Origin: an uncultured Bacteroidales bacterium
GTDB lineage: Bacteria > Bacteroidota > Bacteroidia > Bacteroidales > UBA932
Length of the DNA: 64,000 nt
Direction of reading: 5' to 3'
Assembly: GCA_949300335.1 (NCBI GenBank)
Contig: CASGDV010000067.1
Location: 44,761 to 108,760, forward strand
Below the pieces are notes generated by a model. It worked only from the letters and a program-made list of their open reading frames with translations, made no database searches and was not told the DNA's origin. Positions 2,760-50,038 of this stretch are shown piece by piece. Both the position numbers and the translations under genes were made by a program. Position 1 is the stretch's first letter. Every line of letters begins with the position of its first letter.

Positions 2760-2769
2760 AATTCCCTGT

Positions 2770-5310: not shown

Positions 5311-5344
5311 AGTATAAAAAATTAGGACTTATTTTTCCGGATTA

Positions 5345-6376: not shown

Positions 6377-6415
6377 AAAGTTGATCGAATTATGGTTAAA
6401 AAATATATATGTCAT

Positions 6416-7203: not shown

Positions 7204-8205
7204 CTATCCTATCACTATTGTATTGATGGAATTTCCGGCGATCGTGTTGCGGTATTCCTTTCCGGCCCACTGGAATCCCACAGCCTTGACATATTTTGAA
7301 GCATCAGGGTCGCAGAGAATAGTGTCCACCAAAGCTGCATTCGCCCTTTCCATTGTTCCGAACATGATTCCCGTCCCGCAGGCCTCCATCTCAGGTCCAA
7401 GATACTTTCCCACGAACTCGGCCAGTGTGGATGCCTTCCAGCAGCAGCTCGGGAAAATCTGGTCGGAGTTGAATTCGTTCTGCGGCATCACGGCGAAAAT
7501 GTCTATTCCTTCCGCACGGTAAGCCTCGATGAATTTTCTGAAATACAACGCATAAGCCTTCATATATTCAGGCTTGGCTATGAACATGTCGGCTCCTTCC
7601 TTCCCGGTCTTGTCCGCAGGAAGGCCGTTTCTGTACTGTTCCGGAGTTTCTTCACCGGTATATTTCATTGCATAGTGCCTGTTGTACTTCATCCATGTCG
7701 GAGGGCACCAGGGAGATGCCCAGATTTTCAGGTTCTCTCTGACCGAAAGTGCTTTCTTTATGAATGGAATCAGGGTCTGGTAGTCGTTGGCGATGGAAAA
7801 GTTCTTCATTTCAAAATCACCGTCCGTTTCGTTGTATGAATACCAGTCGCGTGAAAAGTCATTAGCTGCTACAGGCATTCTGCATATGTTGAAATTGGCT
7901 CCTCCATTTTCGGCAAAAAGTTCATTGAAGATAAGATTTCTTTCCTGTTCTGTAAGAAGGCTCAGGGCATCCCATCCAAGTTCATTGAAGCATGCGCCGA
8001 AACCATCTATGACTTGCCCGGTTTCTCCGGTAACTATATTGACGGAACATTTGCCGTCTGTCTTCAAGCCGGAAACATCCTGTGCCCAAGGAACAGTTTC
8101 CGTAGTGGTGATGTTTTCCCTGATTGAAGGCTGGCAGCATGAACTTAATGCGGCAAGTGAAGCTGCAATTAGATTCAGTTTGATAAGTAGTTTACTCATA
8201 TCCAT
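7204..8205 (-). pseudogene. GH30 glycoside hydrolase with large in-frame internal deletion
   Basis: GFGACFNE, ASPWCPPTWMK and QNE acid/base are present; the sequence jumps from GFQWAGK directly to the terminal strand ..GNSINTIVI, so the nucleophile region is missing; ~333 aa. Confidence 0.75.
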
Positions 8206-8206
8206 G

Positions 8207-8932
8207 TTATTTTTTATGATTGTTCTGTTTGTAAAGCCTGTTCTTGTAACAATCTTCCTTTTGGCAGATGGCACAGCCATAAGGACGTTTTTCCACCTTC
8301 TCCCCGATACCTGCCAATGCGCTTACCGATTTTATCGGAAGCATCAGTCCTGATTCGCATATTGATATCCCGCAGAAATTCTCCGGAAGGAGGCTGAAAA
8401 ACTTATGCTGTTCCGATATATGCCATCCGCAGTGTCCCGGACAATATGAATTCGTAACCTTCAATCCCTTTTCAGCGAGAAGAGATGACACTTCCTTCAT
8501 TCCCCATTCAACAGTACTTTCGGCGATAACCGAACCCCATGAGTCCGCAATGAAACCAAGCATTATATCAGCCCTCAAACCATCTGATTCCAGCCATTCC
8601 GACATTTCATGTCCTACGGAACCTGTCATCAGCACAAAACGGCTGCTGTATTCAAGTCCGTTGACAATATCTTCAGCCGGATTGAACATGATGTTTTCCG
8701 CAAGAATATGCGTCTTGTCCGGAATATTGCCAGTGACAATCCTGAAACCGAATCTCGGCTTGCATATTTCACGGATATGTCCGAGCGTATTGTCAATCAT
8801 GTCCTCAATGTCTTGGGGAGGTACGCTTCCCTGAAATCTCAAGGTACTCAGAAGCGTCTTTCTTTTCAACGGAAGTTTTTCAAAAGCGAGCGGAAGTTCA
8901 ATCGCTTCTCCGTTCAGAATATCATATGTCAT
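8207..8932 (-). CDS. Stand-alone methionine synthase (MetH) activation-domain-like protein
   Basis: SYCPGHCGW (variant of SPGYxxW), GLMLPIKSVSAL, C-terminal CxxCxxxxC; ATGA overlap with upstream cobW-like gene. Confidence 0.75.
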   Translation of the reverse strand: MTYDILNGEAIELPLAFEKLPLKRKTLLSTLRFQGSVPPQDIEDMIDNTLGHIREICKPRFGFRIVTGNIPDKTHILAENIMFNPAEDIVNGLEYSSRFVLMTGSVGHEMSEWLESDGLRADIMLGFIADSWGSVIAESTVEWGMKEVSSLLAEKGLKVTNSYCPGHCGWHISEQHKFFSLLPENFCGISICESGLMLPIKSVSALAGIGEKVEKRPYGCAICQKEDCYKNRLYKQNNHKK

Positions 8933-9816
8933 ATATGCAGCAGTTGTCTGATTGTGTTTTCTGTTCTTTTCCTGTCCTCCATGCTTTTCCAGCAAACGAA
9001 AAGACTGCAGTCCGTATGCGGACCCGTTGTTTCGTTAATTGAAATTTCCTGGCCGGCATTGTCCAGTGTAAAGGTACTGTTTCCTGTGGAAATATTCCCC
9101 TTGATTCTCAGGAACGATGCAATGTTGTCTGAAAGATAATCGGCCAGTTTACGCAAATCATCTTCACCAAGAACTTTGAAACCGAAAGTTTCCATTTCAT
9201 ATTCCGGAATCCCGGCGCCGGCATTCATGATGAAGTTATGGAACCCGGAACAGAATGCGCACATATCATCTATATCGTATTTCTCCAAAAGTTCATCCCC
9301 GGAAAAAGCGGTCATTGCCCGCGGATTAAGACCGGATATATCATTCTTTACGGATTCCCTTACTTCAGGTGCCGCTATGTCGGTCTTTGTCAGTATGATT
9401 ACCGGAGACAAAGCAAACTGTTTCCGGTAAAAATTCCTGTTGATTTTCATCAGCAGGTCCCATTTCGTGACATCGGCCAATGCAATCGTTGCATCAATAT
9501 GGATTCCCGGTACCGTAAACAACTCGTCAAGGGCGGCAATCCCCGAAGGTTCTATAATCAGATAATCCGGAGCAATTTCCTTTTCGACATATCTGAATTT
9601 TTCGTTAAGGTCACCGCGCAGCGTGCAGCATACGCAGCCGGACCTGAGGTCTATGACCCGTGAACCCGTACCGTCCAGCCTCTCTGAATCGATATTATGG
9701 TTTCCGGCCTCATTTTCCAGAATTACGGCATTGCATATCCACCCGCTTTCAAGCATTTTTTCAATCAGCGTTGTCTTTCCGCTTCCCAGGAAGCCGTATA
9801 CAAGAATGCACTTCAT
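8929..9816 (-). CDS. COG0523/CobW-family G3E metallochaperone GTPase
   Basis: Walker A GFLGSGKTT, GCVCC metal motif, IEPSG, LTKTD, C-terminal RIKG. Confidence 0.88.
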   Translation of the reverse strand: MKCILVYGFLGSGKTTLIEKMLESGWICNAVILENEAGNHNIDSERLDGTGSRVIDLRSGCVCCTLRGDLNEKFRYVEKEIAPDYLIIEPSGIAALDELFTVPGIHIDATIALADVTKWDLLMKINRNFYRKQFALSPVIILTKTDIAAPEVRESVKNDISGLNPRAMTAFSGDELLEKYDIDDMCAFCSGFHNFIMNAGAGIPEYEMETFGFKVLGEDDLRKLADYLSDNIASFLRIKGNISTGNSTFTLDNAGQEISINETTGPHTDCSLFVCWKSMEDRKRTENTIRQLLHI

Positions 9817-9847
9817 CAGCTTGTCCGTTGATTTCCTTCAGTTTTTT

Positions 9848-12800
9848 TTATTCGTAAACGACCTTGACTGCCTTTGACGGTTCCGACATGTTGTCGTTTT
9901 CATCTATCGCGACAACCCTGTAGTAGTATGTTCCTTTGAGAGGCTTTCCTTCATAGTCCGCATTGAAATCCGCATATCTTGTCGAATTCCGTCCGGCGAT
10001 GGTCAGATAATTCGTGTTGTCCGGCCTGAATCCGGCACTGGTACTTCTGTATATCCTGTATATTGTCGCCCCTTCAACCTTGTCCCACACGATGCTTCCG
10101 TCTCCGGGATTACGTGCTTTCACCACTGTATCGAAATTTCCATTACCGTCGTATACCGAAACTGTCATGCACCTTCCGCAGTCACTTACCGGATATCTCG
10201 AAGAATTGGTTCCGTCCGATGCCATAATGTAATATTCCAAACCTTCCGAAGTTACATCCTTTCCCGGAATTTCGGCTGCAAATGCCGAACGTGCCTTCCT
10301 CTTGAAGCCGATCTTTTTCCAGGCCCCGCCTGTCCCTGTTTCCCTGTAGTATACAGCGGCATTCATGACATGACCTGCCCTGTTGTCCACAAGGGCTATC
10401 TCAAGAGGCAGCGGATGTCCTTCTGCAGATGATGAAAGCGGAGATACGCATATGATTACCGGTGCTTCGCAGTCTGCATTTCCGGCTTCGCATGATGAAG
10501 GTATGCTCATCGGACTTTCCTTCCCGTCTGAACTGACCGCACTTACCCTGTACTCTGCATGACCGTCCCATATGTCTGTGAACGAATTTTTGTCTGACAA
10601 TACTGTCCCGGCCAGTTTGCCGTTCCTGTATATCCTGAATGAAGCCGCGGACGGCTCGTTGTTTCTCCATGTTATAATGGCGCCGTTCTCCAGACCCCGT
10701 GCATATATGAAAGTCGGAGACTTCACCTCCTGTGTCGCCACGATATCGTTTATTCTCCTGATGTAGTTCAGCTGCACGAAACGGTTCTGTGTACTCATTA
10801 TGTTTCCCTTTGAGGAAATGTCGTCAATCCTGTAGAGGAATGATTTTGCCCAAGGCTCGAGCCTTCCCGGGAAATCCTCCCATGTATAGTTCTTGAAATC
10901 CCTGTTCAGAATGAGATGGTCGAGAGATGCCGACAGTCTCTGTTTCAGATGGCCTAGACGGTATCTCTGCTCGTCGGAATCGTTTTCTCCGATGACGGTT
11001 TCCACTGTCTCAAGCTGTTCCCCGGCCAGACCGATCCATTTGTATGAATCATCGATTACGGAAAAACACAGATACACATCATGTACACCTTCTATTCCGC
11101 TTACATCTATCCCACCGTCAATCCAGGCAGCCCAACCTCCGGTACCGGTTGTTTCTATGCTGCCTACCGGTTCTGATTCCATGCTGTCGATGAATGCAGA
11201 GACCTTTCCTCCGGCAGATGCCGAAGACAGTCTTATGGAAAGCTTCTTCGCATCATTGAAATCCATGCCGGAATACTTAAGCGTACATCCGCGGGTAATG
11301 TAGCCGATGCATTTGCCGTAGTCTTCGCTGTCGCATACTTTCGCACCCTTGACTTCGCTGAAATCCTCCGCTGCCACGGTCACCGGTGAATTGCCGTCTA
11401 TCGACATGCTTCTGATGTTCATTATATAATGGTTGCTCGCGTTGTACTCGAACGGAGGAGTCCCTTTACATTCTCCGAAATTCGAAGAGCAGGCCTCATT
11501 CTCGTCTATGATATCTATCACGGCTTCGGCCGAAGATTTCCCATAGTTCTTTTCCGCGAAATCAAGATATACCTTCCTTGACGAGTCAAGTTCCGTGTCG
11601 CCGTACCACGGTGCCTTGCTGACGTACCACAGTTTCGGTGAAACAGCATCGGTAAGCCTCCATGTAAGGGTATAGAAACCTTTCATGTTGCCTGCCCTGT
11701 TCCTGTAGCTGTCTATCGTTTCTGAAAGGTGGATATTGAAAGGGTAGTAATATTCGGAACTGTTGAAATCCCTTTCAAGCCACGGACATCCCCAGTATTC
11801 ACGCTCACCGTAAATCTCGCCGGTTTCACATGAGGCAGTATAAGGGGCTATGGGAGCGCAGATAACGTCTTCCGGCAGGGTCTTTACCGATTCCGCCGTA
11901 AGCCCCCATCCGGAAACGGCTATCCTGGTGTCGGGTGACAGACGTTTCATCTCGTCATAGAATATGTCGAATATTTCCCTCCACCTTGCATAGAATACCG
12001 GGTCTTTCGGAGATTCCGACTGGAAACACAGTACATAGTCCAGTTCGCCGTACTGCCCGGCTACATTCCTTACCTGTGCCTTGACGACTTCTGGATCGGC
12101 AGCGTCTGCTCCATAGGCCTTGTAATCCTGAGGAATCAGGTCTATGTCCAGTCCGAGACCGATTTTCACACCTCTTGTATGCGCATATCTGATGATTTTC
12201 CTGAACATCGACGAGCCCTTGTCGGCAATCTGCCTGTTGCTTAGAGTCTCGTTGTGCATGCCGTAGTCTGCACCGAAATCATAGTCGTCATATATCTCGG
12301 ATGCGCCGAACTGATAGTCGTTGATATCCCATCCGGGACACTGCCATCCGTGTCCTGACTTTACAGTAGGCATCCAGTTCCTTGACAGAAATCCCCTGTA
12401 TTCGAAATTCTGGAACATTTCGTTGTGTCCGCATGTGCCGTTATAATTGTGGTACATGATGAAGTTCATCCTCATTCTTGCGCACTGGTCGATGATGAAT
12501 TTCCAGTCCTCATATGAGTATACTGTTGCAGACTGGGGAAAATTCGTCCACGGGAGGATTCCCCTTATATACATCTCCGGTTCCTTCCTCTCATTGACTT
12601 CCGGAACGGATGCTGTCCTGCCGTTTTCAGGGTATACGTCACCGCTCATGTAGAACCTCATTCCCATATGGTCCTCCAGAAGACCGTACACTCCATAAAG
12701 AAGTCCGACAGGGGAGTCTCCGGTTATCCTTGTGACCTGTTTCCCGTTCTCTGTTACCGTACTTATACTGTATCCCTGGGCATTGCTGTCATTTCCCGAA

Positions 12801-12997
12801 GTCTCCAGAATGAAACTCGCATCATTGCCTGAATCAGTGACAGCGTGTTTAGTACCTGTGAGCTGGTAGATATACCTCTGAAGTTCGGAAGCTGCATATT
12901 TCTCCATATCTCCGGCATTGGCGCCGATTCTGATCCGTGCCGAGGAAAAACCGGCTCCGATGATTAATGATAAAGTCAGGACAAAAATCTTTTTCAT
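9848..12997 (-). CDS. Secreted multidomain putative glycoside hydrolase (GH20b/GH67N-like N-domain, unclassified catalytic barrel, CBM6-like, FN3-like repeats)
   Basis: Signal peptide; YAASELQRYI...GLLYGVYGLLE N-domain; CBM6-like segment (GTGGWAAW, GVHDVYLCF); FN3-like FRIYRNG and YYYRVVAID. Confidence 0.65.
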   Translation of the reverse strand: MKKIFVLTLSLIIGAGFSSARIRIGANAGDMEKYAASELQRYIYQLTGTKHAVTDSGNDASFILETSGNDSNAQGYSISTVTENGKQVTRITGDSPVGLLYGVYGLLEDHMGMRFYMSGDVYPENGRTASVPEVNERKEPEMYIRGILPWTNFPQSATVYSYEDWKFIIDQCARMRMNFIMYHNYNGTCGHNEMFQNFEYRGFLSRNWMPTVKSGHGWQCPGWDINDYQFGASEIYDDYDFGADYGMHNETLSNRQIADKGSSMFRKIIRYAHTRGVKIGLGLDIDLIPQDYKAYGADAADPEVVKAQVRNVAGQYGELDYVLCFQSESPKDPVFYARWREIFDIFYDEMKRLSPDTRIAVSGWGLTAESVKTLPEDVICAPIAPYTASCETGEIYGEREYWGCPWLERDFNSSEYYYPFNIHLSETIDSYRNRAGNMKGFYTLTWRLTDAVSPKLWYVSKAPWYGDTELDSSRKVYLDFAEKNYGKSSAEAVIDIIDENEACSSNFGECKGTPPFEYNASNHYIMNIRSMSIDGNSPVTVAAEDFSEVKGAKVCDSEDYGKCIGYITRGCTLKYSGMDFNDAKKLSIRLSSASAGGKVSAFIDSMESEPVGSIETTGTGGWAAWIDGGIDVSGIEGVHDVYLCFSVIDDSYKWIGLAGEQLETVETVIGENDSDEQRYRLGHLKQRLSASLDHLILNRDFKNYTWEDFPGRLEPWAKSFLYRIDDISSKGNIMSTQNRFVQLNYIRRINDIVATQEVKSPTFIYARGLENGAIITWRNNEPSAASFRIYRNGKLAGTVLSDKNSFTDIWDGHAEYRVSAVSSDGKESPMSIPSSCEAGNADCEAPVIICVSPLSSSAEGHPLPLEIALVDNRAGHVMNAAVYYRETGTGGAWKKIGFKRKARSAFAAEIPGKDVTSEGLEYYIMASDGTNSSRYPVSDCGRCMTVSVYDGNGNFDTVVKARNPGDGSIVWDKVEGATIYRIYRSTSAGFRPDNTNYLTIAGRNSTRYADFNADYEGKPLKGTYYYRVVAIDENDNMSEPSKAVKVVYE

Positions 12998-13032
12998 GTT
13001 CAAGTGTAATTTCTATATGGTTGATATACAAT

Positions 13033-13064
13033 CAAAAATAACCATTATGCGAAACAATAGCAAA
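13033..13064 (-). promoter_or_regulatory. Bacteroidetes sigma-A promoter for the 12997 gene and downstream cobW/activation/GH30 genes
   Basis: Minus strand TTTG (13061-13064), N20, TATTTTTG (13033-13040). Confidence 0.55.
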
Positions 13065-13179
13065 TTTTCCGTGGCATGCAAATCGTTCATTATACGCTAA
13101 GTCCCGTGAAATAATTAATGGCCAACTCCTTATATGTGTCCATAAAAAGGAGCCGGCCACTAAGTGTTCCCGGAACCGT

Positions 13180-13593
13180 CTATGCTATGGCTTCAGCAAT
13201 AAGCCTGTCGACTGTTTTCTTCTCTTCCGGTGTGAGCATCCTGTGTTCTCCGTCGTTGTTATGGGTATTGGATTTTTCCACGATTATTATCTTCGCTTTT
13301 TCATCCATGGAAATGTTGTGCCATACACCTGCCGGAATGTTGTATGTGACTCCGTTTTCCATGAGTAAGGCCTTGATTTCAGCCGTTTCTCCGGAATAGT
13401 CTGCCGTAAGGAGTATTCCCTTGCCTTCCAGACATATGAATACTTCATCTGTCTCTTTGTGTACCTCCATATCGATTAAATCGTCGAGTCTGTGTTCATC
13501 GACACATGTCAGATATGCTACCTGCCATCCGTCGGAAATAAGGAAAGGATCATAACCTTCCTTTGTCCAGTTGTATTTCTCTATATCTTTCAT
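13180..13593 (-). CDS. Cupin-fold protein
   Basis: H-x3-DE (HKETDEVF) and YNIPAGVWH cupin motifs; 4-nt overlap with upstream methyltransferase. Confidence 0.7.
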   Translation of the reverse strand: MKDIEKYNWTKEGYDPFLISDGWQVAYLTCVDEHRLDDLIDMEVHKETDEVFICLEGKGILLTADYSGETAEIKALLMENGVTYNIPAGVWHNISMDEKAKIIIVEKSNTHNNDGEHRMLTPEEKKTVDRLIAEAIA

Positions 13594-14600
13594 TTTTTTC
13601 TGTCATTAAAGTCTGCCAAAGCTTTGTAGAATGAATCGATGTTGGCAAAAGGAAGTTCCGGAGGAGTGTCGCATCCTGTCGAGAGGACAAAATTTGCATA
13701 GCCTTCCGTCTGTTCGAGCAGTCCGTATGTCTTTGCGTATACCTCTTCCGCCGACGCCGTCTTCATTACGGATACCGGGTCGATGTTACCCATGACAAGC
13801 GTGTCCGAAGGGCATTTGTCAAGAGCATCCTTCATGTTTATCGCATTTCCGAAATGGTATCCGAATGCTCCGGTTTCCACCATTGCTTCCGTACACTGTC
13901 CCGTGTTACCGCAATTGTGGAGGAAAATGCCGAAGTTTTCGTCCTGTACTTTTTCCACTATCTTCTTTACGAAAGCTGATGAAAATTCCGAGCATGCTTC
14001 ATTCGAAAGAAGACCGGCAGCAGGCTCGGCCATCAAGACTCCGTTTGCTCCGGCTTCTTTCAGCGCCATGCAATAGGATGTGATGAATTCCGTACATTTT
14101 TCAAGCAGAATCTTCATTGAATCCGGCTCGATATATATGCCCATCATTATTTCGGACATGTCGTACAGCCTTCCTGCGAGGGAATATGGCCCGATACAGC
14201 CGGCAAGCACCGGCCTGTCAGCTTTAGACGCAATTGTCCTGCAGGCCTTGAGATATTCCGGCATCCTGCCTTTGTCCAGACCCGGAACAGCAAGCTTTTC
14301 TATCGTTTCCCTGTCACATACAAGCCTTCCCGTAACGCTGGGCACTTCGTGATCGGAAAAACTGATTTCCGCACCGAATGCTTCAGCCTCTACCGTAAGG
14401 TCCATTATTACGCTCGTGGCTGCTGACGGATACCTGCTTGCCAGGGTCTCTACGGCCATTGCATGCACGCTGCCGTCAGTGACGGCATCCCTGACAGTCT
14501 TTCCGAGAATTTCTATCCCGGAATGTGTCATGATAGGTATCGCAATCCTTTTGTCCGAAGCAATCACGCTGCCTATCCATTCTTTTATGTTTAGTCTCAT
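13590..14600 (-). CDS. MtaA/CmuA (UroD-fold) methylcobamide methyltransferase
   Basis: MDLTVEAEAFG, GPYSLA, Zn motif LHNCG...STGCD, GNIDP. Confidence 0.85.
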   Translation of the reverse strand: MRLNIKEWIGSVIASDKRIAIPIMTHSGIEILGKTVRDAVTDGSVHAMAVETLASRYPSAATSVIMDLTVEAEAFGAEISFSDHEVPSVTGRLVCDRETIEKLAVPGLDKGRMPEYLKACRTIASKADRPVLAGCIGPYSLAGRLYDMSEIMMGIYIEPDSMKILLEKCTEFITSYCMALKEAGANGVLMAEPAAGLLSNEACSEFSSAFVKKIVEKVQDENFGIFLHNCGNTGQCTEAMVETGAFGYHFGNAINMKDALDKCPSDTLVMGNIDPVSVMKTASAEEVYAKTYGLLEQTEGYANFVLSTGCDTPPELPFANIDSFYKALADFNDRKK

Positions 14601-14633
14601 ACTGGCAAAAATTTAATGTTCAAATCAATGTTG

Positions 14634-15272
14634 TCAGTTCGCTGCAACAAGCTGCTTTGCAACGATGACTGCCGAATTTGCATTGTCTGTATATGCGTCA
14701 GCTCCGATTTCCATTGCGAATTTCTCGTTTACCGGAGCACCGCCTACCATGACTTTCACCTTGTCGCGGAGGCCTGCAGCTTTCAGCGCATCAATCACGG
14801 TTCTCATGTAATTCATGGTTGTCGTCAGCAATGCAGACAGACATATTATGTCTACTTTCTCTTTTTCTACTGTCTCGACAAACTTGTCCGCACTGACATT
14901 GACGCCAAGATTTATCACCTCGAAGCCGCATCCTTCGAACATCGATGCAACGAGATTCTTTCCGATATCATGAAGGTCGCCGGAAACTGTTCCGATTGCA
15001 ATCTTTCCTATTGTGGCTGGCTTGTCTCCCGCAAGAAGAGGCTTTATGATTTCAAGAGCACCCTTCATTGCCCTGGCAGCCATCAGGAGTTCCGGCACAT
15101 ATGCCTTTCCTTCCTGGAAACGCGCTCCGATTTCCTCCATGGCCTTGATCATGCTGTTCGATATTATGTCCTGCGGATTGATACCTTCCGCAACAGCCGC
15201 CCTGGTAGCTTCTATTGCAGGCTCCATTTTTCCGCCGACTATGGAATCATGTATGATTTCAAGATTATTCAT
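14634..15272 (-). CDS. Corrinoid (B12-binding) protein, MtaC/MttC-like
   Basis: Cap domain YVPELLMAARAM; DxHxxG motif GDLHDIGKNLV; SALLTTTM; VMVGGAP. Confidence 0.93.
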   Translation of the reverse strand: MNNLEIIHDSIVGGKMEPAIEATRAAVAEGINPQDIISNSMIKAMEEIGARFQEGKAYVPELLMAARAMKGALEIIKPLLAGDKPATIGKIAIGTVSGDLHDIGKNLVASMFEGCGFEVINLGVNVSADKFVETVEKEKVDIICLSALLTTTMNYMRTVIDALKAAGLRDKVKVMVGGAPVNEKFAMEIGADAYTDNANSAVIVAKQLVAAN

Positions 15273-16348
15273 GACATTGTTGGTTTTTTGTTCAACTTCA
15301 TTATTTCCTCGTAGGAACCGTACTTCCTTGCAGCAGCTATGAACGCCTTGAAGTTCTCTTCAGGAGTATTTCTTCCCATGGCACATCCTGAGCTGATGAT
15401 ATGGCTGCGTCCCTTCGTCTTCTGGATTAGCTGTTTTACAGCTTCGTCGATCTCGGCCGGAGTTCCGGTTACGAGCGGATAGCTCGGGTCGATATTTCCC
15501 ATGAGCACAGTCGATTCAGGAACGAGCGCCCTTGCCTCTTCCATGTCGAGCTTCCAGTCTACTTCAAGAATCTTGGCTCCGGTTGTTCCCATGTCCTTGA
15601 TTATGCCGTTGGTGTTTCCGCAGATGTGTATTGAGAAAGGTATTCCGTATGCCTGCACCTCTTCTGTAAGGCGTTTTTCCGGCTCGAGGGCAAATTCACG
15701 GTACATTTCAGGTGAAATCAGATTCGGACCTGCGAATGCGTCTCCGATTGATGTCGCATGGGCACCGGCATCTTTCTGTGCCTTTGCAAATACGGCGCTG
15801 ATTTTGCGGCAGTACTCGAGAACATCATCTATGAGCTTCTTGTCTTCGGTAAGAAGGTCCATCATGAACTGTGTCGTGCCGCGGAGGAGACAGGCGATGC
15901 TGAAAGGTCCCTGATCTGCCCTTCCCATGATGAATACATGGTCTCCGATTTTCTCTTTCAGATAGCGTGTGGCCTCAAGCCATTCATTGAGTCTGCCTGA
16001 TGTGGCAGGATCCGGAATCGGCATGTCGTAAACGTCGCGGAGATCTTTGAGTACGGGCTGGTTTTCATCCACGATGGCAGGTTCGTCGTCCCTGTAGATT
16101 ACCTTAGCCCCGACTGCTTCTGCAATCGTCGCGTCATCGAAGTCGATAACGCATCCGTCGTATCCGTATTTTTCCTGTGAGATTATGTGGCACTCCGCCA
16201 TCGTTTTACCGCATCTGTTGACCTCGCCGATCTTTCTGCCTGCAGTTTCCACTGCAAACATGAAACTCTGTGGAATAACCGGCAGGGTATCTGGAGTCTG
16301 GCCGTTCAGTACTGCCATGCAACGCTCCAATGAAGTCATTTCTTTCAT
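15269..16348 (-). CDS. Second MtaA/UroD-fold corrinoid methyltransferase
   Basis: MTSLER start, QGPFSIA, ISPEMYREF, Zn motif IHICG...SSGCA, GNIDP. Confidence 0.85.
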   Translation of the reverse strand: MKEMTSLERCMAVLNGQTPDTLPVIPQSFMFAVETAGRKIGEVNRCGKTMAECHIISQEKYGYDGCVIDFDDATIAEAVGAKVIYRDDEPAIVDENQPVLKDLRDVYDMPIPDPATSGRLNEWLEATRYLKEKIGDHVFIMGRADQGPFSIACLLRGTTQFMMDLLTEDKKLIDDVLEYCRKISAVFAKAQKDAGAHATSIGDAFAGPNLISPEMYREFALEPEKRLTEEVQAYGIPFSIHICGNTNGIIKDMGTTGAKILEVDWKLDMEEARALVPESTVLMGNIDPSYPLVTGTPAEIDEAVKQLIQKTKGRSHIISSGCAMGRNTPEENFKAFIAAARKYGSYEEIMKLNKKPTMS

Positions 16349-16360
16349 ATATGTATTTTT

Positions 16361-17506
16361 TTAATGTTGTTTTTTCAATTTGAACGATACCGCAAGTATA
16401 TATACCAGGGCTGCAAGAGGTATGACGAGACTTGCCGCCTGATTCCATGAATCGGCTATGATTCCCATAATCGGAGGTATCAGGGCACCGCCTGCCACTC
16501 CCGTAATCATGAGTGCGGAGATTTCATTAGCCTGTGAAGGCTTGTAGTTCATGGCTTCCCCGAAGATTGCGGCGAATACATTCGCACAAGTCAGTCCGAT
16601 GAGGAACAATGCCGTGAATATCATCCAGCTTTCATTGAAAAGCATGAAGCCGATGAAACTGAGCACCGCAACCGAAAGTGTGATTATCTGGAATTTCCTG
16701 ACCGGAATCCTTGAAAGCAGGAATGAACCCGCGAATGTTCCGGTAGTCCTTGCAATATAATACAGGCTGCATGCGAATCCTCCCTGCTCTAATGTCATGG
16801 AGAACCTTTCGGTGAGATATTTAGGCACTGCCGTCATGAGTCCGATCTCAAAACCGACGATAAGTATTATCACGGAGAACAGCATCATGATATAGCCGTC
16901 CTTGAACAATGAGCCTATAGAGTTCTGCTGCTGCACCTGAGGCTCCTCCTCTATCTTTGTGAATGACAGCCATATCCATGATATGACCGTGATTATGCAG
17001 TATGCCGGGAATATGTATTGCCAGTTTCCGAAGACTCCTGCGGCAAGTCCGATGAGAATAGGTGCGAGGGTTGACGAAATTGCCTTGATGAACTGGCCGA
17101 GTGCAAGCATTCCTGTAACCTTTTCTGCCGGCACAATGTCCGTCAGCAGCGGGTTCAGGGAAACCTGAAGTATGGTGTTTCCTATACCGAGAAGCGCAAA
17201 TGCCGCCAGAGCTACGGGAAACGAATAGCTTATGTAAGGCATTATCATTGCCACCGCTGTCACTACTGCACTGAAAAGAACGGTCTTCTTTCTTCCGAAT
17301 TTTCCCATAAGACGTCCGGTCGGAAGCGAGAATATCGCAAACCACAGGAAGACCATCATCGGTATCAGGTTGGCCAGTTTGTCATTGAGACCGAAATCGT
17401 TTTTGACATAGCTCACCGATATGCCCACCATGTCAACGAATCCCATTACAAAGAAACTGAAAAGTACCGGAATCAGTGCATTCAGTTGTATTTTACCGGT
17501 TTTCAT
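16361..17506 (-). CDS. MFS sugar transporter (FucP/GluP-like)
   Basis: ~12 hydrophobic segments; FFVMGFVD, LQVSLNP, GVAGGALIP. Confidence 0.85.
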   Translation of the reverse strand: MKTGKIQLNALIPVLFSFFVMGFVDMVGISVSYVKNDFGLNDKLANLIPMMVFLWFAIFSLPTGRLMGKFGRKKTVLFSAVVTAVAMIMPYISYSFPVALAAFALLGIGNTILQVSLNPLLTDIVPAEKVTGMLALGQFIKAISSTLAPILIGLAAGVFGNWQYIFPAYCIITVISWIWLSFTKIEEEPQVQQQNSIGSLFKDGYIMMLFSVIILIVGFEIGLMTAVPKYLTERFSMTLEQGGFACSLYYIARTTGTFAGSFLLSRIPVRKFQIITLSVAVLSFIGFMLFNESWMIFTALFLIGLTCANVFAAIFGEAMNYKPSQANEISALMITGVAGGALIPPIMGIIADSWNQAASLVIPLAALVYILAVSFKLKKQH

Positions 17507-17536: not shown

Positions 17537-19855
17537 TTATTCTGTCTTGAAATCATGCAGTGAGGCAATATCGTCCCTTTCGCACATCTCGAATTCAAGC
17601 GTGCCGCCGGCCATGATATCTTCATAAGATATCGATATACCTTCATATTCCTTGCCGTCAAGTCTGACGCTCTTCACGAATCTTGCCTTGTCGGAGTATC
17701 CGTTTGCCTTTATCTCGAAGACTTTGCCGTTCTCCAGATTGAGCCTGCATGAAGGTACCTGTGGAGCACCAAGGATGAATTCCCCTCCGCACGGGTCGAC
17801 AGGATAGAATCCGAGCACGGTAAAGAGGTACCATGCGGACATCTGGCCACAGTCATCGTTGCCTTTCAGACCGTCCGGAGCATTCTTGCTGAAATTGTCC
17901 GTCAGATAGCTGAGGATTGCATCCGTCTTGTAACCGTCATCGGTATACTTGTACAGGTAGGGGACATGATGGCATGGCTCGTTCCCGTGCCAGTATTGGC
18001 CGAGAGTACCGTATATGTTCCAGACAAGTTCCTTCACATATGGTTTCGGAGCCTTTGAATAGAACATGGAATCAAGGTTTCTGCTGAATGTATCCTTCCC
18101 TCCCATGAGCTCAATGAGTCCGGGCACGTCATGCTGCACATGAAAGCGGTAGTGCCATGCATTGCCTTCAGTGAAATCCGACTGCGGAACCCATTCTCCT
18201 ACGACCTGGTTTACATCGATTCCTGTCTTGAATTCTCCTGCCGCATTCCTGCCCCTCATGAAGCCGCTTTCGCTGTCATAGACATTATGATAATCGGCAG
18301 CCCTTTTCCTGAAATATGCGGCATCCTCGTTATGGCCGAGTCTTTCTGCAAGAATGGATGCGCAATGGAAATCGTAGGCTCCTTCGAGCAGACGTGCCAC
18401 CATTTCCCTGCTGTCATCTACAGGAGTCATGGTCACATCGTAAGGAATGTAACCGTATTTGTCAATGAGTTCGATGTGGTTTCTGTAATGTGTCTTTCTC
18501 AATGTCGTGGAGATTGCTTCATAAACCTCCTCCATATTCATGTCCGGACACAATCCTTTGAGATATGCATCAACGAGTACGGGAACGGCATGGTTTCCTA
18601 TCATCGTATTCGTCTCCTTGCCCCACAAAGCCCATCTCGGGAGATATCTGTTCGCATTTGCCGGATTGTCACTTGTCACCGGTCTAGTTCTGTAATGATC
18701 CATTATCGATTCGCACATCTGCGGAACGAGAGACGGAGTGAGAATCGTATACATAGGATGCGCTGCACGGTATGTGTCCCAAAGCGACAGCGTGCTCATG
18801 AACTTTCCGCTTTCCGCTTCAGCTACAGCACCTTCGGCTGTCATGTATTTCCCGTCTACATCTGCAATGTTGTTCGGCTGGATGTAAAGATGGTATATTG
18901 CGGTATATATCATCGTCAGTCTGTCGGCATCTCCTGTCGCCTCAACTCTGCCGAGGATATCGTTCCATTTTTTTCTGGCCTTTTCTCTGATTGCATCAAA
19001 ACTGTCATTCTCCCCGATTTCAGCATCGAGATTGGCTGCAGCTGCTTCCACCGATGTCGTGGACAGGCCGACATGCACATCAAGTTTTTCCGGATTGTCC
19101 TTGAAACGTACGATGTATCTCGGAGCTTTTTCATCCGCATTTTCCGGAGGGACAAGCTTTTCGATTCCGCTTATTTCCGAACTGAACCTTATTGTATAGT
19201 AAAGGTCCCTTTCGGCCCATTCCCTGGCCTTCCTGTATCCTGATATGCTGTTCTTTCCTTTTTCATCCCATGCTTCCAGAACATTTCCCTTGATTCTTTC
19301 CATGTCCCATGCCACGCCGTACTGCAGGTCTATGAGGACCGCCGCGCTTTCCGGTTTGTCGAACGTATACCGGTGCCATGCCGCATGCTCGGTAGCGGTC
19401 AGTTCTACCAGGGTATTGTTGTCCGTCATTCTGACAGTATAATATCCCGGTGTTGCGTATTCGCTTTCCTTGTCATATCCGGATTCGAAGTTCTTTCTCG
19501 CCGACGGGTCTATATCCCTGCCGCAGTAAGGCATGATCAGTATGTCGGACAGGGTTGGGCAGCCCGCACCGTTGACATGCGTCTGGGCAAATCCGGACAG
19601 TCTCGGGTCATTGTACTGATAGCCGGCAACATGATCCATGCAATAGCCGCTGTGGAAATCGGTGGTGGATTCAGGACTTACCTGAACCATTCCCATTGGA
19701 ACAGCAGCTCCCGGAAAACAATGTCCCTCATGCAAGGTACCGACAAAAGGATTGACATACTTTGTATAGTCCGTCTCCTGTCCGCTACATCCGGACAGGA
19801 GCAGACCGGCCAAAGCAGATATCGTGATAAATCTTTTCATCTGATTATTCCGCAA
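17537..19855 (-). CDS. GH92 alpha-mannosidase, lipoprotein
   Basis: YVNPFVGT, FPGA, SLWDTYRA, TEGNAWHY, HGNEP, GNDDCGQMSAW. Confidence 0.93.
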   Translation of the reverse strand: MRNNQMKRFITISALAGLLLSGCSGQETDYTKYVNPFVGTLHEGHCFPGAAVPMGMVQVSPESTTDFHSGYCMDHVAGYQYNDPRLSGFAQTHVNGAGCPTLSDILIMPYCGRDIDPSARKNFESGYDKESEYATPGYYTVRMTDNNTLVELTATEHAAWHRYTFDKPESAAVLIDLQYGVAWDMERIKGNVLEAWDEKGKNSISGYRKAREWAERDLYYTIRFSSEISGIEKLVPPENADEKAPRYIVRFKDNPEKLDVHVGLSTTSVEAAAANLDAEIGENDSFDAIREKARKKWNDILGRVEATGDADRLTMIYTAIYHLYIQPNNIADVDGKYMTAEGAVAEAESGKFMSTLSLWDTYRAAHPMYTILTPSLVPQMCESIMDHYRTRPVTSDNPANANRYLPRWALWGKETNTMIGNHAVPVLVDAYLKGLCPDMNMEEVYEAISTTLRKTHYRNHIELIDKYGYIPYDVTMTPVDDSREMVARLLEGAYDFHCASILAERLGHNEDAAYFRKRAADYHNVYDSESGFMRGRNAAGEFKTGIDVNQVVGEWVPQSDFTEGNAWHYRFHVQHDVPGLIELMGGKDTFSRNLDSMFYSKAPKPYVKELVWNIYGTLGQYWHGNEPCHHVPYLYKYTDDGYKTDAILSYLTDNFSKNAPDGLKGNDDCGQMSAWYLFTVLGFYPVDPCGGEFILGAPQVPSCRLNLENGKVFEIKANGYSDKARFVKSVRLDGKEYEGISISYEDIMAGGTLEFEMCERDDIASLHDFKTE

Positions 19856-22724: not shown

Positions 22725-24452
22725 TTATTGGTTGTTCAGTAATGCCTTAGTCTGCTCGGGACGGTATTTCATCCTTACCCTCCACAGCAGTTCGTTGATT
22801 GATACGGTATGTATTCCGTCCATCAGCAGATCCTTTGCCGCTTTCGTAGGATTGTAACCTACGGCCGGATTTCCGCTTATCCTGCTGGTCTCAGCAAAGT
22901 TGGACCATGCATGTACGATTGTCCATGACAGAACGTCTTCATCATCCTCGGCAGCTGCAGTCACATCCCTGTTTATGAGTGATGCAACAAATTCAGGGAC
23001 ACCGGCTCTCGGCCTGAAATCTGTGACTTCATTCCAGATACTGTATCTTGAAGTCATGACAGGTATGTCGATTCCTGCCTTGTTCTTCACCCAGTAGATT
23101 TCTCCGTCAAGCTCATACGGTGCGTATTGCACGGCCAGCATGCCTGTGATGCCCGGCATCTCTTCAGCATATATCTGATAGGCTTCAAGAGCTTCGGGGC
23201 TGTCTACGTCGCGGCAGATGAATCCGAATACTTTCACGCCTGTCTTTTCCATCTGCGCGTTCACTCTCCTTGCAAATTCCCTGAGAAGCTCCGGACGGTT
23301 TTCCCTTTCAATGGCGAAGAGATCCGGATACTGGTATCCTCCTCCATATTCTATGAAAGTCGTTTCATTTGCGTTCTGGTATTCCGCGAATGCGTTCCAT
23401 GTCACAGGAGTAAGTATGGACAGATTTGTAGGGCTGCTTGTCCAGCTCATGCCGGCATCGGCAGCTTTTCCGCCTCCCATGTAACAGTCTGATGACAGGT
23501 AATTGTTCATTGACCATTGTATGTTGTCACCGTCACTCATTACGAAGGCATGGAATGAACCTTCCCTGCTGAAATCTATGTCGGACAATTCCACTTCCTT
23601 CACCTTCTTGAGTTCTATGTTTTCACCTACAGAAGAAATGAACGGGAGATTGTAACACCAGTTGGTCGCGGAATTGTAATGTCCCCATCTGGCGATGACG
23701 CTCGTGAAGTCGAATTCGTCTCCGCATCCCCATCCGAGGATAGGGGAGAGAGGCTCGACCCATTCAAGAACCTTGTCTATCAGGTCTCTTCTGTCATCGT
23801 ACAGCATAATTTTGTGGGCAATCGCATAATCCCTGAGGTTGTGTACCGAAGGCGGTATGCTGAGTGCGGTGTGATTGTTCAGCTTCGACTTGTTTTTCGC
23901 GAAACATTCTTCCAGGCTTTCATTTCTGGCATCCTTAAGGCATTTGAGACCGGCTTTTTCAGCCTTCTCCTTGTTCCCGAGGTCTATGAGTGCGCCTTTG
24001 AGCAGACCGGCATATACAGTGGCCGTATTTGCCGAGTATTCCGTGCCGGGGTTGGTCGCGTATGGATTTGCGTGCACTTTGTCGAGTTCGTAGAGGACAT
24101 AGCCTTTCACCACGCCTTGCTTTTTCAGGTATGAGAGGAGACTCCATGTGTCCATAATCCGGATGTCGGTGATGTTCAGGGCACAGATTGATTTTTCAAG
24201 AACATCATCGTAGGCCGGTACATCCACTTTCATCCATACCATAGTGTCGAATTTGCCTTCATTGACAGCTTGTGCGGCCAGACCGGAAAGTGATTCCTGA
24301 AGCATGGTTTCCGCCAGATCGGCAGGCTGTGTGCAGATTATGAGTTTTGCAGGAGCCTTCTGTTCAGGCCAGCCGTGCCTGTTTGCAACATTCTCCGCCA
24401 GAAGCATCACGCTGCTCATGACGAACAGGATAATAGTGCAGAATTTTTTCAT
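22725..24452 (-). CDS. GxGYxYP-domain putative glycoside hydrolase
   Basis: MSDGDNIQW and GGGYQYP motifs; signal peptide. Confidence 0.8.
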   Translation of the reverse strand: MKKFCTIILFVMSSVMLLAENVANRHGWPEQKAPAKLIICTQPADLAETMLQESLSGLAAQAVNEGKFDTMVWMKVDVPAYDDVLEKSICALNITDIRIMDTWSLLSYLKKQGVVKGYVLYELDKVHANPYATNPGTEYSANTATVYAGLLKGALIDLGNKEKAEKAGLKCLKDARNESLEECFAKNKSKLNNHTALSIPPSVHNLRDYAIAHKIMLYDDRRDLIDKVLEWVEPLSPILGWGCGDEFDFTSVIARWGHYNSATNWCYNLPFISSVGENIELKKVKEVELSDIDFSREGSFHAFVMSDGDNIQWSMNNYLSSDCYMGGGKAADAGMSWTSSPTNLSILTPVTWNAFAEYQNANETTFIEYGGGYQYPDLFAIERENRPELLREFARRVNAQMEKTGVKVFGFICRDVDSPEALEAYQIYAEEMPGITGMLAVQYAPYELDGEIYWVKNKAGIDIPVMTSRYSIWNEVTDFRPRAGVPEFVASLINRDVTAAAEDDEDVLSWTIVHAWSNFAETSRISGNPAVGYNPTKAAKDLLMDGIHTVSINELLWRVRMKYRPEQTKALLNNQ

Positions 24453-26486: not shown

Positions 26487-26499
26487 GTTCCGATTCATT

Positions 26500-35204: not shown

Positions 35205-35244
35205 TTATGAATACCGGAAATATACATTTAAAAACATTGATACC

Positions 35245-43889: not shown

Positions 43890-43902
43890 AACTGTCCTTC
43901 GT

Positions 43903-44874: not shown

Positions 44875-44943
44875 TCAACTCCTTTTAACATTTTGACAAG
44901 TTGTCTTGCTGATGCGGATATCCTGTACCGCATCGCATCGTGG

Positions 44944-44978: not shown

Positions 44979-44999
44979 GTATTCTCTGTAGCCGGATGA

Positions 45000-48679: not shown

Positions 48680-48684
48680 CTGCC

Positions 48685-50036: not shown

Positions 50037-50038
50037 TT

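Follow-up and report, generated by a model that had tools for sequence, protein, structure and literature searches.

A putative cobalamin-dependent sugar O-demethylation cassette in an alpha-mannosidase locus of a Bacteroidales bacterium

Described demethylation systems and the cassette

The methylcobamide:coenzyme M methyltransferases MtaA, MtbA, and MtsA of Methanosarcina (PDB 4AY7/4AY8) have the UroD TIM-barrel fold in common with two proteins of the cassette described here (UroD1 and UroD2), match them residue for residue at the HxC...C zinc site, and likewise partner a small DxHxxG corrinoid protein. However, the cassette UroDs are only ~30% identical to these enzymes (183 and 137 bits against an NCBIfam cut-off of 235), the coenzyme M pathway is not expected in Bacteroidota, and the cassette lacks an MtaB- or MttB-type MT1; it lies in a glycan locus by a sugar importer, with its two UroDs flanking the corrinoid protein. 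The Type 1 mlp clusters of Kountz and Balskus also combine several MtaA-like UroDs with a corrinoid protein (PMC10418091). These orphan clusters contain no folate methyltransferase and come from anaerobes that are not methanogens, gut species among them; a role in methyl-sulfur or methyl-selenide metabolism was proposed for them (PMC10418091). Unlike the cassette, they occur mainly in Firmicutes and always with a RACE activase, and that paper gives no glycan context and mentions neither Bacteroidota, glycoside hydrolases, nor sugars.

The anaerobic aryl O-demethylases (MtvABC of Moorella, OdmABCD/VdmB of Acetobacterium, and those of Desulfitobacterium) are three-component systems with the logic we propose, in which an ether methyl passes to a Co(I) corrinoid protein and then to an acceptor, aided by an activator. 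Their MT1 is also a UroD-superfamily protein (see also PMC10418091); no direct sequence comparison with OdmB/VdmB was made. They act on phenyl methyl ethers, where phenolate is a good leaving group, whereas the presumed donor here is an alkyl (sugar) ether, and they employ a pterin-binding MT2 delivering to tetrahydrofolate and a RACE activase, whereas the cassette has a putative UroD MT2 and a MetH-like local activator. The corrinoid protein itself corresponds to MetH's cap and cobalamin modules, and a 241-aa protein of the cassette is a reactivation domain of the TM0269 type, with the PGY motif, known from the split Thermotoga system (TM0268/TM0269, PDB 1J6R). In contrast to these systems, the cassette has a UroD barrel in place of the folate-binding module, and its reactivation protein, which is either fused or coupled to a COG0523 GTPase, has four additional invariant cysteines; a stand-alone homocysteine-binding domain is added in sister loci.

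For sugars, a described route is that of the cytochrome P450 demethylases of aerobic marine bacteria, which act on 6-O-methyl-D-galactose (PMC6292453, PMC10033563). They perform the same task within a polysaccharide-utilization locus, ridding the sugar of a methyl ether that stands in the way of its catabolism, but the P450 route uses unrelated proteins, needs oxygen, and yields formaldehyde, whereas the cassette would be oxygen-independent and would retain the methyl group. A 2025 paper regards anaerobic sugar demethylation as still undiscovered, and our literature search found no paper describing corrinoid-dependent sugar O-demethylation or an enzyme for it. If our reading is true, B12-dependent methyl removal from sugars without oxygen is encoded inside an alpha-mannan-degrading cluster of an uncultured gut Bacteroidales bacterium.

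Gene content and conservation of the locus

The window, the whole 64,000-nucleotide stretch analyzed, carries on its minus strand SusC/SusD, two GxGYxYP proteins, GH38, GH92, an MFS transporter, UroD1, the corrinoid protein, UroD2, and a cupin, followed by an inserted CBM6 protein, a CobW GTPase, and the MetH-reactivation-like protein (Table 1). GH38 and GH92 are directly upstream of the MFS/UroD cassette, and intergenic gaps or overlaps run from −4 to 33 nt from GxGYxYP through the cupin. The glycosidases have signal peptides but UroD1, the corrinoid protein, UroD2, and the cupin do not, a topology consistent with the demethylation model. The second GxGYxYP gene, with a TAACTTTG box upstream, is likely the first gene of an enzyme unit; a hairpin (24559-24540) lies 3' of the preceding GxGYxYP lipoprotein gene. 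GH30 likely starts at ~8205, immediately after the MetH-like gene. A LacI gene flanks the Parabacteroides cassette as well.

Table 1. Coordinates of the features in the window
Feature	Position	Strand	Evidence
Laminin_G_3/ConA-like lipoprotein, first gene of SusCD unit	31154..32188	-	Pfam PF13385, 8.7e-18
SusC-like TonB-dependent transporter	28153..31143	-	CarbopepD_reg_2 + Plug
SusD-like protein	26500..28140	-	SusD_RagB 3.8e-28, SusD-like_3
GxGYxYP-family lipoprotein	24576..26519	-	Pfam
GxGYxYP putative glycoside hydrolase	22725..24452	-	Pfam
Secreted GH38 alpha-mannosidase	19845..22709	-	GH38N 8.8e-27 + C-terminal domains; signal peptide
GH92 alpha-mannosidase lipoprotein	17537..19855	-	GH92 4.1e-151
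MFS sugar importer (gluP/fucP-like)	16361..17506	-	MFS_1 1.4e-41
UroD1, MtaA-like Zn enzyme, proposed MT1	15269..16348	-	URO-D 1.9e-69; IHICGN...SGC
Corrinoid protein, cap + Rossmann domain	14634..15272	-	B12-binding_2 + B12-binding; GDLHDIG (DxHxxG)
UroD2, second MtaA-like Zn enzyme, proposed MT2	13590..14600	-	URO-D 2.4e-53; LHNCGN...TGC
Small metal-binding cupin	13180..13593	-	AF2 model; Pfam match below cut-off
Secreted CBM6 protein, 1051 aa, GH family unassigned	9848..13003	-	domain match
COG0523/CobW G3E GTPase	8929..9816	-	4.4e-32; GSGKT + GCVCC motifs
MetH reactivation-domain homologue, TM0269 type	8207..8932	-	12-sequence profile
GH30, beta-1,6-glucanase-like	7204..8280	-	domain match
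Second GH38, divergently transcribed	32502..35204	+	
Second GH92	35173..37599	+	
LacI-family regulator	37654..38661	+	

A preliminary description of positions 8,207 to 17,506 had listed a tightly packed, co-directional set of genes, and this held, as every gene it named was found in place on the minus strand. Its list was incomplete, leaving out the CBM6 gene, and its second transcript with CobW and MetH-like genes held only in part, as the CBM6 gene heads the proposed unit and GH30 follows. The CBM6 gene is preceded by a 176-nt gap, its insertion junctions are spanned by contigs, and no such gene lies between cupin and CobW in the homologous UroD1 cassettes examined. The CobW and MetH-like genes are joined by an ATGA overlap, are split in the same way in locus L027, and are covered without differences by contigs of two independent studies, so a frameshift was rejected and the split is natural; in Parabacteroides the two are fused in one protein.

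The order GH38-MFS-UroD1-corrinoid protein-UroD2-cupin-CobW/MetH-like beside SusCD recurs in P. distasonis, a Bacteroidaceae MAG, and two further lineages. Among the 21 Bacteroidota UroD1 loci of at least 8 kb, 18 contain GH38, GH92, or GH47 and 19 a sugar transporter, with the MFS conserved next to UroD1 (neighbors were labeled by BLAST against our own reference set, not Pfam). Of the 19 GH38 genes in five genomes, 11 are found no more than 14 kb from UroD1, against a chance expectation of ~0.1, so the linkage is not due to chance. The genome to which the window belongs holds two further UroD/mannosidase cassettes, GH38-UroD-GH38-UroD-corrinoid protein-UroD-GH38 and GH47-UroD-cupin. UroD1 also has orthologues (56-68% identity) in Bacillota, Verrucomicrobiota, Planctomycetota, Lentisphaerota, and Chloroflexota, where the neighboring genes encode Sugar_tr or ABC sugar importers, PfkB/ROK kinases, PMI, DUF4432, and class II aldolase; none of the 26 loci from other phyla has a corrinoid protein within 10 kb. 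The closest relatives (90% identity) retain UroD1, cupin, and CobW at this locus without a corrinoid protein, UroD2, or MetH-like gene, and the cassette is absent from 24 genomes of the same genus, which makes it accessory. Its presence in culturable Parabacteroides species makes the proposal experimentally testable.

Assignment of roles and the proposed pathway

The zinc ligands H241/C243/C322 are unvarying across 12 homologues and align with the MtaA HxC...C motif. UroD1 is closer to MtaA than UroD2 is (4.7e-32 versus 3.4e-18), scores better with MtaA than with HemE by ~14 orders of magnitude, and keeps an acidic residue (D264) that UroD2 lacks at the counterpart position. UroD1 and corrinoid protein genes overlap by 4 nt, and the model of their complex reached an ipSAE of 0.73 (best control, 0.39), passing a mark met by 58 of 80 solved complexes and 2 of 110 mismatched pairs; runs agreed in at least 57% of contacts, with partner pLDDT of at least 78. 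This pass may partly reflect likeness to solved corrinoid complexes.

In the 23 Bacteroidota loci, the corrinoid protein and UroD2 occur together in 13, each alone in 1, and neither in 8. In a quick tree UroD2 forms one tight clade, 14 of its 16 rows adjoining a corrinoid protein, and UroD1-type genes form separate clades adjoining transporters; this genome has two copies of the UroD2/corrinoid-protein part, with 82% and 76% identity. UroD2 and the corrinoid protein thus make up the constant module, and it is the UroD1-type genes that vary and are linked to sugars. At the UroD2 slot, sister loci have a stand-alone homocysteine S-methyltransferase domain (PF02574), which adjoins the corrinoid protein in genomes G139 and G033 and an Opitutae genome. 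As MT2 is unambiguous there, the UroD genes remain as MT1 candidates, and from comparative genomics only we infer that UroD1 is MT1 and UroD2 is MT2. The assembled genome encodes no pterin-binding methyltransferase beyond FolP and MetH, which, with the PF02574 substitution, fits a thiol acceptor. Its only two free corrinoid proteins lie within mannosidase loci, and a RACE-type activase is encoded elsewhere.

The cupin (AF2 pLDDT 93, cupin fold; unvarying H45, D49, E50, H92, H111) is a conserved partner of UroD1 of unknown function, possibly sugar isomerase-like. CobW, inferred to be a likely metallochaperone, follows UroD1 and cupin rather than the corrinoid protein, being present without the latter in loci L024 and L064. 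The MetH-like gene is confined to loci with a corrinoid protein; as a single sequence its product scored only 22 bits, but a 12-sequence profile matched TM0269 (1J6R) at 1.9e-15, and its extra cysteines are C168, C220, C223, and C228. The MFS shows weak NCBIfam likeness to gluP/fucP/TsgA.

With a probability of roughly 0.6, we favor the reading that a methylated hexose, probably methyl-mannose, is imported and then O-demethylated in a cobalamin-dependent way; this is inferred from sequence alone, without expression, growth, or enzyme evidence. As part of this explanation, the locus would be a polysaccharide-utilization locus for alpha-mannan bearing methyl ethers. SusC/D, GxGYxYP, GH38, and GH92 at the surface and periplasm would free monosaccharides including a methylated hexose, most likely O-methyl-mannose, to be taken up by the MFS transporter. 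Cytoplasmic UroD1 would bind the sugar at its His-Cys-Cys zinc site, and the Co(I) corrinoid protein would take the methyl, leaving free hexose for kinase and PMI. UroD2 would move the methyl group off methyl-Co(III) and onto an acceptor; this is probably a zinc-activated thiol, with homocysteine the leading candidate. The cupin would be a sugar-handling accessory to UroD1, CobW would probably put metal into the zinc enzymes, and oxidized Co(II) would be returned to the cycle by the MetH-reactivation-like protein and/or the RACE activase.

The methyl-sugar demethylation put forward in the preliminary description is supported in every part testable by sequence; what is inferred rather than shown is the identity of the sugar, the direction in which the methyl moves, and co-transcription. 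Its claims that both transferases keep the zinc motif and that the absence of a pterin-binding methyltransferase suggests a thiol acceptor held. Lack of linkage to CAZymes in other genomes had been set beforehand as a refuting test; when checked, the cassette was strongly linked to alpha-mannosidases and sugar import. Several points count against our reading: the loci of other phyla have no nearby corrinoid protein, the closest relatives retain only part of the cassette, the cassette is accessory within its genus, cleavage of an alkyl (sugar) methyl ether has no known corrinoid methyltransferase precedent, no specific methylated mannan in animal guts was identified as substrate, and the His-Cys-Cys(+acid) site is of the kind with which MtaA and MetE activate thiols. 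Because of this site and the greater MtaA likeness of UroD1, the MT1/MT2 roles may be reversed or the donor may be an S-methyl compound.

Alternative explanations

First, the chemistry may be the same but the donor different: a sugar carrying an S- or N-methyl group (such as a methylthio-pentose), or a small aglycone that is methylated and freed with the mannoside. UroD1 would then work on a thioether like MtsA or MtpA. The thiol-type zinc site and the closeness of UroD1 to MtaA speak for this, and thioether-to-corrinoid transfer has precedent in the family (MtsA, MtpA). We consider it unlikely: the conserved neighbors are of hexose type (GH38/GH92/GH47, PMI, PfkB/ROK, sugar porters), and the loci examined showed no genes for sulfur salvage.

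Second, UroD1 and cupin might form a corrinoid-independent pair (a Zn-dependent decarboxylase, isomerase, or direct methyltransferase), the corrinoid protein, UroD2, and MetH-like protein being a separate module merely sharing an operon in some Bacteroidota. In support, UroD1 plus cupin is the most widespread unit, a local corrinoid protein is missing from 8 of 23 Bacteroidota loci, all 26 loci of other phyla, and the closest relatives, and the UroD fold includes cofactor-free decarboxylases. This too appears unlikely, as UroD1 retains the methyltransferase zinc motif and favors MtaA far over HemE, a local corrinoid protein always immediately adjoins UroD1, the complex model passes its controls, each of the five tested genomes that lack a corrinoid protein at the locus carries a free one elsewhere, and those of this genome lie only in mannosidase loci.

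Third, the roles could be reversed, with UroD2 the substrate-specific MT1 and UroD1 an MtaA-like MT2 methylating a thiol. UroD2 always sits beside the corrinoid protein as MtaB does beside MtaC, and UroD1 is the more MtaA-similar and keeps D264; in methanogens MT1 adjoins the corrinoid protein and MT2 is often elsewhere. Reversal is nevertheless improbable, since across phyla it is the UroD1-type genes that accompany sugar transporters, and these differ in number and type, whereas UroD2 and the corrinoid protein are constant and similar between copies, and a homocysteine methyltransferase domain fills the UroD2 slot in sister loci.

Finally, an ordinary methylamine/methanol ("Mta") system unrelated to the glycan locus is suggested by the resemblance of the corrinoid protein to MtgC and MtbC in NCBIfam, which stays below threshold, and by the annotation of BT_0340/0342/0343 of Bacteroides thetaiotaomicron as "Mta" corrinoid methyltransferase proteins (PMC8941943; this supports the protein annotations of the BT_0340-0343 cassette mentioned in the preliminary description). 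It is very unlikely, as the cassette contains no MttB-, MtbB-, MtmB-, or MtaB-type MT1 (every NCBIfam score is under cut-off) and such a system would not explain why synteny with mannosidases and sugar importers recurs in phylum after phylum.

Components and layout of the proposed methyl-transfer module

The source of the window is a Bacteroidales MAG (G000; 2.37 Mb, 81% complete) that is present in animal gut metagenomes. Adjacent SusC and SusD genes, two GH38, two GH92 and two GxGYxYP genes, and a LacI regulator together meet the criteria for a polysaccharide utilisation locus (PUL). Across the run of genes from GxGYxYP to cupin, the intergenic spacing ranges from -4 to 33 nt, with 4-nt overlaps at the UroD1/CP and UroD2/cupin junctions (CP, corrinoid protein). 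Signal peptides were found on the glycosidases and on none of the methyl-transfer proteins.

Positions of the mannosidase locus, neighbouring features and related cassettes. Positions without a contig or genome refer to the window.
Feature	Position	Strand	Genes in order or content
Mannosidase locus, ORF run	32188 down to 7204	-	
Block 1		-	ConA-like lipoprotein, SusC, SusD, GxGYxYP lipoprotein
Block 2		-	second GxGYxYP protein, GH38, GH92
Block 3		-	MFS transporter, UroD1, corrinoid protein, UroD2, cupin
Block 4		-	1051-aa CBM6 protein, CobW GTPase, MetH-activation-like protein, GH30
Opposite unit		divergently transcribed	second GH38, second GH92, LacI regulator
UroD1	15269-16348	-	
Corrinoid protein (CP)	14634-15272	-	
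UroD2	13590-14600	-	
Cupin	13180-13593	-	
CBM6 protein	9848-13003	-	secreted, no assignable GH family
CobW GTPase	8929-9816	-	
MetH-like protein	8207-8932	-	
GH30	7204-8280	-	beta-1,6-glucanase-like
Arabinan-type group	2770-7096	-	NUDIX/NrtR (AraR-type) regulator, GH43, GH51-type arabinofuranosidase
Mfa-type fimbrial cluster	42879-48324	-	Mfa2, two fimbrillin-like genes, DUF5119, DUF3575/OmpA
Riboswitch and B12-uptake operon	48674-55036	+	DUF5074 protein, TonB-dependent receptor, BtuF-like binding protein, FecCD permease, ABC ATPase
Third GxGYxYP-family protein	56991-59114	+	
L022 (G000 contig C31)	1614-18074		GH38-UroD-GH38-UroD-CP-UroD-GH38, with GH92 and AraC
L023 (G000 contig C143)	3238-9260		AraC, glycyl-radical enzyme and radical-SAM activase, cupin paralogue, GH47, UroD1 paralogue, GH38-like gene
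RACo/RACE-type activase (G000 contig C107)	28354-29856	-	
L151 (G139)	2456-6014		UroD, corrinoid protein, PF02574 domain; MetH-reactivation-like gene; GH130, GH18, SSF symporter, GH38 alongside
L152 (G033)	8920-11661		UroD, corrinoid protein, stand-alone PF02574 domain
L149 (Opitutae)			UroD, corrinoid protein, stand-alone PF02574 domain

Hairpins accompanied by TAACTTTG 5' of the GxGYxYP gene and by TATTTTTG 5' of the CBM6 gene were found by eye and rest on consensus match only. A sigma-70 promoter scan, which is unsuited to Bacteroidota, gave counts no higher than the shuffled level. The LacI-type palindrome TWAACCGGTTWA is confined to the divergent region at 32.2-32.4 kb and absent 5' of the inner units, a distribution that is evidence neither for nor against co-regulation.

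The best match of both UroD proteins was Methanosarcina MtaA (4AY7; 4.7e-32 for UroD1 and 3.4e-18 for UroD2), with true uroporphyrinogen decarboxylases ranking behind. Both proteins keep the HxC...C zinc motif in alignment with that of MtaA, and H241, C243 and C322 are invariant across 12 homologues. A HemE function for these genes was rejected on the basis of the zinc motif, the closer MtaA match and the genomic context. Neither protein meets the MtaA/CmuA family TIGR01463 (183.2 bits for UroD1 and 136.9 bits for UroD2 against a cut-off of 235.4 bits); they are related to this curated family but are not members of it.

The corrinoid protein combines a helical cap (PF02607, 2.4e-18) with a Rossmann B12-binding domain (PF02310, 1.4e-29), and its motifs GDLHDIG, SALLTT and GGAP are invariant in 18 homologues. 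MtaA-like UroD genes lie on both sides of its gene (n = 2). When UroD1 and the corrinoid protein were modeled as a complex, the score was 0.73 versus 0.39 for the best control. Among solved complexes, 58 of 80 attained this mark; among mismatched pairs, 2 of 110 did. The predicted contacts fall on two parts of the corrinoid protein, its cap helix and its His loop. There are no activity data behind this model, and its score may in part reflect likeness to solved complexes.

Association of the cassette with alpha-mannosidases

Orthologues 82-85% identical to UroD1 occur in P. distasonis (on at least 1000 contigs) and in other Bacteroidales. The P. distasonis order is LacI, GH38, MFS, UroD1, CP, UroD2, cupin, a CobW-MetH-like fusion, SusC, SusD and GH38, and a Bacteroidaceae MAG cassette has GH63-like genes and a third UroD in addition. 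For the UroD1 survey, species-representative genomes were scanned, giving 80 loci, and neighbours were labelled by BLAST against our own reference set. An alpha-mannosidase was present in 18 of the 21 Bacteroidota loci of at least 8 kb, a sugar transporter in 19/21, a cupin in 15/21, and the corrinoid protein and UroD2 each in 12/21. In five cassette-bearing genomes with 2-7 GH38 genes each, 11 of 19 GH38 genes lay within 14 kb of UroD1, where about 0.1 would be expected by chance. The preliminary description had placed a B12 methyltransferase module in an alpha-mannosidase PUL, which is confirmed, and had named absence of a link to CAZymes in other genomes as a refutation; that test was not triggered.

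The same MAG carries two further UroD/mannosidase cassettes, on C31 and C143. In the first (L022), three GH38 genes alternate singly with the three UroD genes; a second corrinoid protein is also encoded there. The glycyl-radical enzyme of the second (L023) suggests that the same sugar, or a related one, undergoes an additional anaerobic step.

The cassette is an accessory feature: a search of 24 congeners of the window's genome found no copy, and in a set of 401 Bacteroidales genomes, G000 and just two others have a UroD1 orthologue at 68% identity or more. The closest relatives, three loci on Logan contigs (L024-L026) with UroD1 90% identical, keep both GxGYxYP genes, GH38, GH92, MFS, UroD1, cupin and CobW and are without the corrinoid protein, UroD2 and the MetH-like gene; LacI and mannose-6-phosphate isomerase come next. 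More distant UroD paralogues (35-38% identity) in other Bacteroidales stand in strings of GH38, AGE-epimerase, sugar-porter and UroD genes.

Beyond the Bacteroidota, UroD1 orthologues at 56-68% identity were found in Neomoorella, Christensenella, Akkermansiaceae, Opitutaceae, Lentisphaerota, Phycisphaerales and others. The Neomoorella carbonis gene is surrounded by LacI, two PfkB kinases, PMI, a sugar ABC importer, DUF4432 and a class II aldolase, and the Verrucomicrobiota gene by AraC, a cupin, a Sugar_tr porter, another UroD and GH38. No corrinoid protein was found within 10 kb of the UroD1 orthologue in any of 26 non-Bacteroidota loci; a free corrinoid protein was present elsewhere in the genome in all five of the genomes tested.

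Proposed division of labour and corrinoid activation

The corrinoid protein and UroD2 occur together in 13 loci, each alone in 1 and neither in 8. The two CP/UroD2 pairs within G000 share 76% and 82% identity, and the other UroD genes differ. A quick maximum-likelihood tree placed UroD2 in a single tight clade, 14 of whose 16 rows adjoin a corrinoid protein, and UroD1, UroD1b, UroD3, UroD4 and UroD5 in separate clades. Since the CP/UroD2 pair is constant, the UroD1-type genes are variable and the clades separate, we read the UroD1-type enzymes as probable substrate-specific methyltransferases to the corrinoid (MT1s), and CP with UroD2 as the likely shared methyl-handling core, both inferred from sequence alone. 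The reverse assignment, in which UroD2 would be MT1 and UroD1 would pass the methyl group to the acceptor (MT2), is still possible, since UroD1 resembles MtaA more closely than UroD2 does; the pattern of a constant pair and variable UroD1-type genes supports our assignment of UroD1 as MT1.

The MetH-like protein was found only in loci with the corrinoid protein (11/14), while CobW also occurs in L024 and in a further locus, L064, with UroD1 and the cupin alone. A profile of 12 MetH-like homologues matched the Thermotoga MetH reactivation protein TM0269 (1J6R; E 1.9e-15, profile positions 11-213); the single sequence reached 22 bits against a cut-off of 25 (PF02965). In the family's PGY motif, P165-G166 is invariant and Y167 nearly so, the window's own protein having PGH, and the family has four added invariant cysteines. 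By homology over the whole domain, the protein belongs with the TM0269-type MetH reactivation domains. We infer that it probably acts as the corrinoid reactivator. CobW meets the COG0523 G3E GTPase criteria (PF02492 4.4e-32, P-loop GSGKT, GCVCC metal motif) and is likely, by inference, a metallochaperone that serves the zinc or cupin proteins.

In Parabacteroides, CobW and the MetH-like protein form one fused protein of 525-532 aa. In the window, the start codon of the MetH-like gene is the ATG at 8932, which overlaps the stop codon of CobW as ATGA. A frameshift as the source of this split is ruled out, because another locus (L027) shares the split form and contigs of two studies read the same across the junction.

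The cupin was modeled with a confident fold (pLDDT 93), and its His, Asp and Glu residues are invariant. Sequence and fold searches gave one specific likeness, the uncharacterised Clostridium structural-genomics protein 3D0J, the rest being generic cupins; language-model neighbours (FdtA, WxcM, WbuC-like) are a lead only.

No RACE/RamA-type activase (RACE, ATP-dependent corrinoid activase) is encoded in the window. A RACo-type gene was present in 1 of 5 other cassette genomes, that of P. faecalis, whose cassette locus is without a MetH-like gene, and none was found in the B. thetaiotaomicron control genome. Given the scarcity of RACo in cassette genomes and the P. faecalis exception, the MetH-like protein is therefore the probable activator in most hosts. 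G000 has only two free corrinoid proteins, both in mannosidase loci. It also encodes, on C107, an intact 500-aa RACo/RACE-type activase with a 2Fe-2S ferredoxin-like N-terminus (CGGKGVCGNC), among housekeeping genes.

Proposed methyl acceptor and substrate, and neighbouring genes

The assembled G000 contains no pterin-binding methyltransferase beyond FolP and full-length MetH. In genomes of two other Bacteroidales families (G139 and G033) and in an Opitutae genome, the corrinoid protein has a UroD gene on one side and, on the other, a stand-alone homocysteine S-methyltransferase domain (PF02574). As inferred, this variant module resembles MetH in pieces, with the UroD barrel replacing the folate module. 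The PF02574 domain occupies the slot that UroD2 has in the window, and therefore a thiol acceptor is indicated. Homocysteine may be that thiol, though only by inference; sulfide, another thiol and even folate are not excluded.

Sugar methyl ethers stop ordinary glycolytic processing. To our knowledge, their removal is not known other than by the O2-requiring P450 enzymes of marine aerobes, and a 2025 study of a gut porphyran system (PMC12316285) describes anaerobic 6-O-methyl-galactose demethylation as still to be discovered. No description of a corrinoid sugar demethylase was found in the full-text literature searched. The nearest described orphan systems, the type 1 mlp clusters of Firmicutes, include RACE and lack a glycan context, whereas the window's cluster has no RACE and a different context.

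We consider it likely, from sequence inference, that this is a B12-dependent methyl-transfer system functionally tied to mannoside use. That it specifically O-demethylates an imported methyl hexose is less secure, and we put this reading at a probability of about 0.6. The preliminary description had proposed cobalamin-dependent O-demethylation of a methyl sugar, and this survives every sequence-based test; its suggestion of a thiol acceptor is consistent with the absence of a further pterin-binding methyltransferase and with the sister loci and stays an inference. The similar cassette that it places near BT_0340-0343 of B. thetaiotaomicron is supported in part: PMC8941943 assigns BT_0340, BT_0342 and BT_0343 to the corrinoid methyltransferase 'Mta'. 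In the B12-probe screen of that study, the four other known B12-binding proteins or complexes were bound in at least one replicate, and Mta was not reported among those bound. In our protein search seeded with a Bacteroides homologue, no named B. thetaiotaomicron protein was among the 120 matches inspected.

If the reading is true, what is new is the substrate class and the activation module, the kind of system being already known: sugar methyl ethers would join the substrates of corrinoid methyltransferases, the orphan 'Mta' B12 proteins of model gut Bacteroides would be explained, gut competition for vitamin B12 would be tied to access to particular glycans, and a methyl source for methionine or acetogenesis would be revealed. 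A bolder and less likely possibility is that the cassette is a dismantled and re-tooled MetH, with a methyl-sugar-binding UroD barrel instead of the folate module. Gut Bacteroidota would then take methyl groups for methionine/SAM or energy straight from O-methylated glycans, other acceptors would serve in acetogens, aquatic Verrucomicrobiota and Planctomycetota, and the MetH-like protein, with its four added cysteines and coupled or fused to a COG0523 GTPase, would be a new corrinoid reactivator instead of the ATP-dependent RACE. B12 supply would decide who can eat O-methylated glycans. The hypothesis is directly testable in cultured gut bacteria. The window is useful in that it holds the full kit inside a classical SusC/D locus and in that near-identical cassettes occur in the culturable, partly genetically tractable P. 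distasonis, P. gordonii, P. segnis, P. faecalis, Phocaeicola acetigenes, Christensenella hongkongensis and Neomoorella.

Several neighbouring genes deserve mention. No CBM6-type gene stands between cupin and CobW in the homologous UroD1 cassettes examined; two other Bacteroidales genomes (L049 and L054) encode distant homologues of the CBM6 protein (24% identity) at a distance of 4-7 kb from UroD1b genes. The GH30 gene begins directly 3' of the MetH-like gene, and its product of about 333-358 aa is on the short side for this family. Taken with the mannosidases, it offers a tentative hint of a fungal cell-wall target. The adjoining arabinan-type group lies beyond the locus and is likely a separate unit. 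The fimbrial cluster separates the glycan locus from the B12-uptake operon, which is preceded by a cobalamin riboswitch (Rfam 88.8 bits) and is separated by about 16 kb from the B12-dependent locus, with no functional link shown. Downstream of this operon, the third GxGYxYP-family protein is fused to an F5/8 type C domain.
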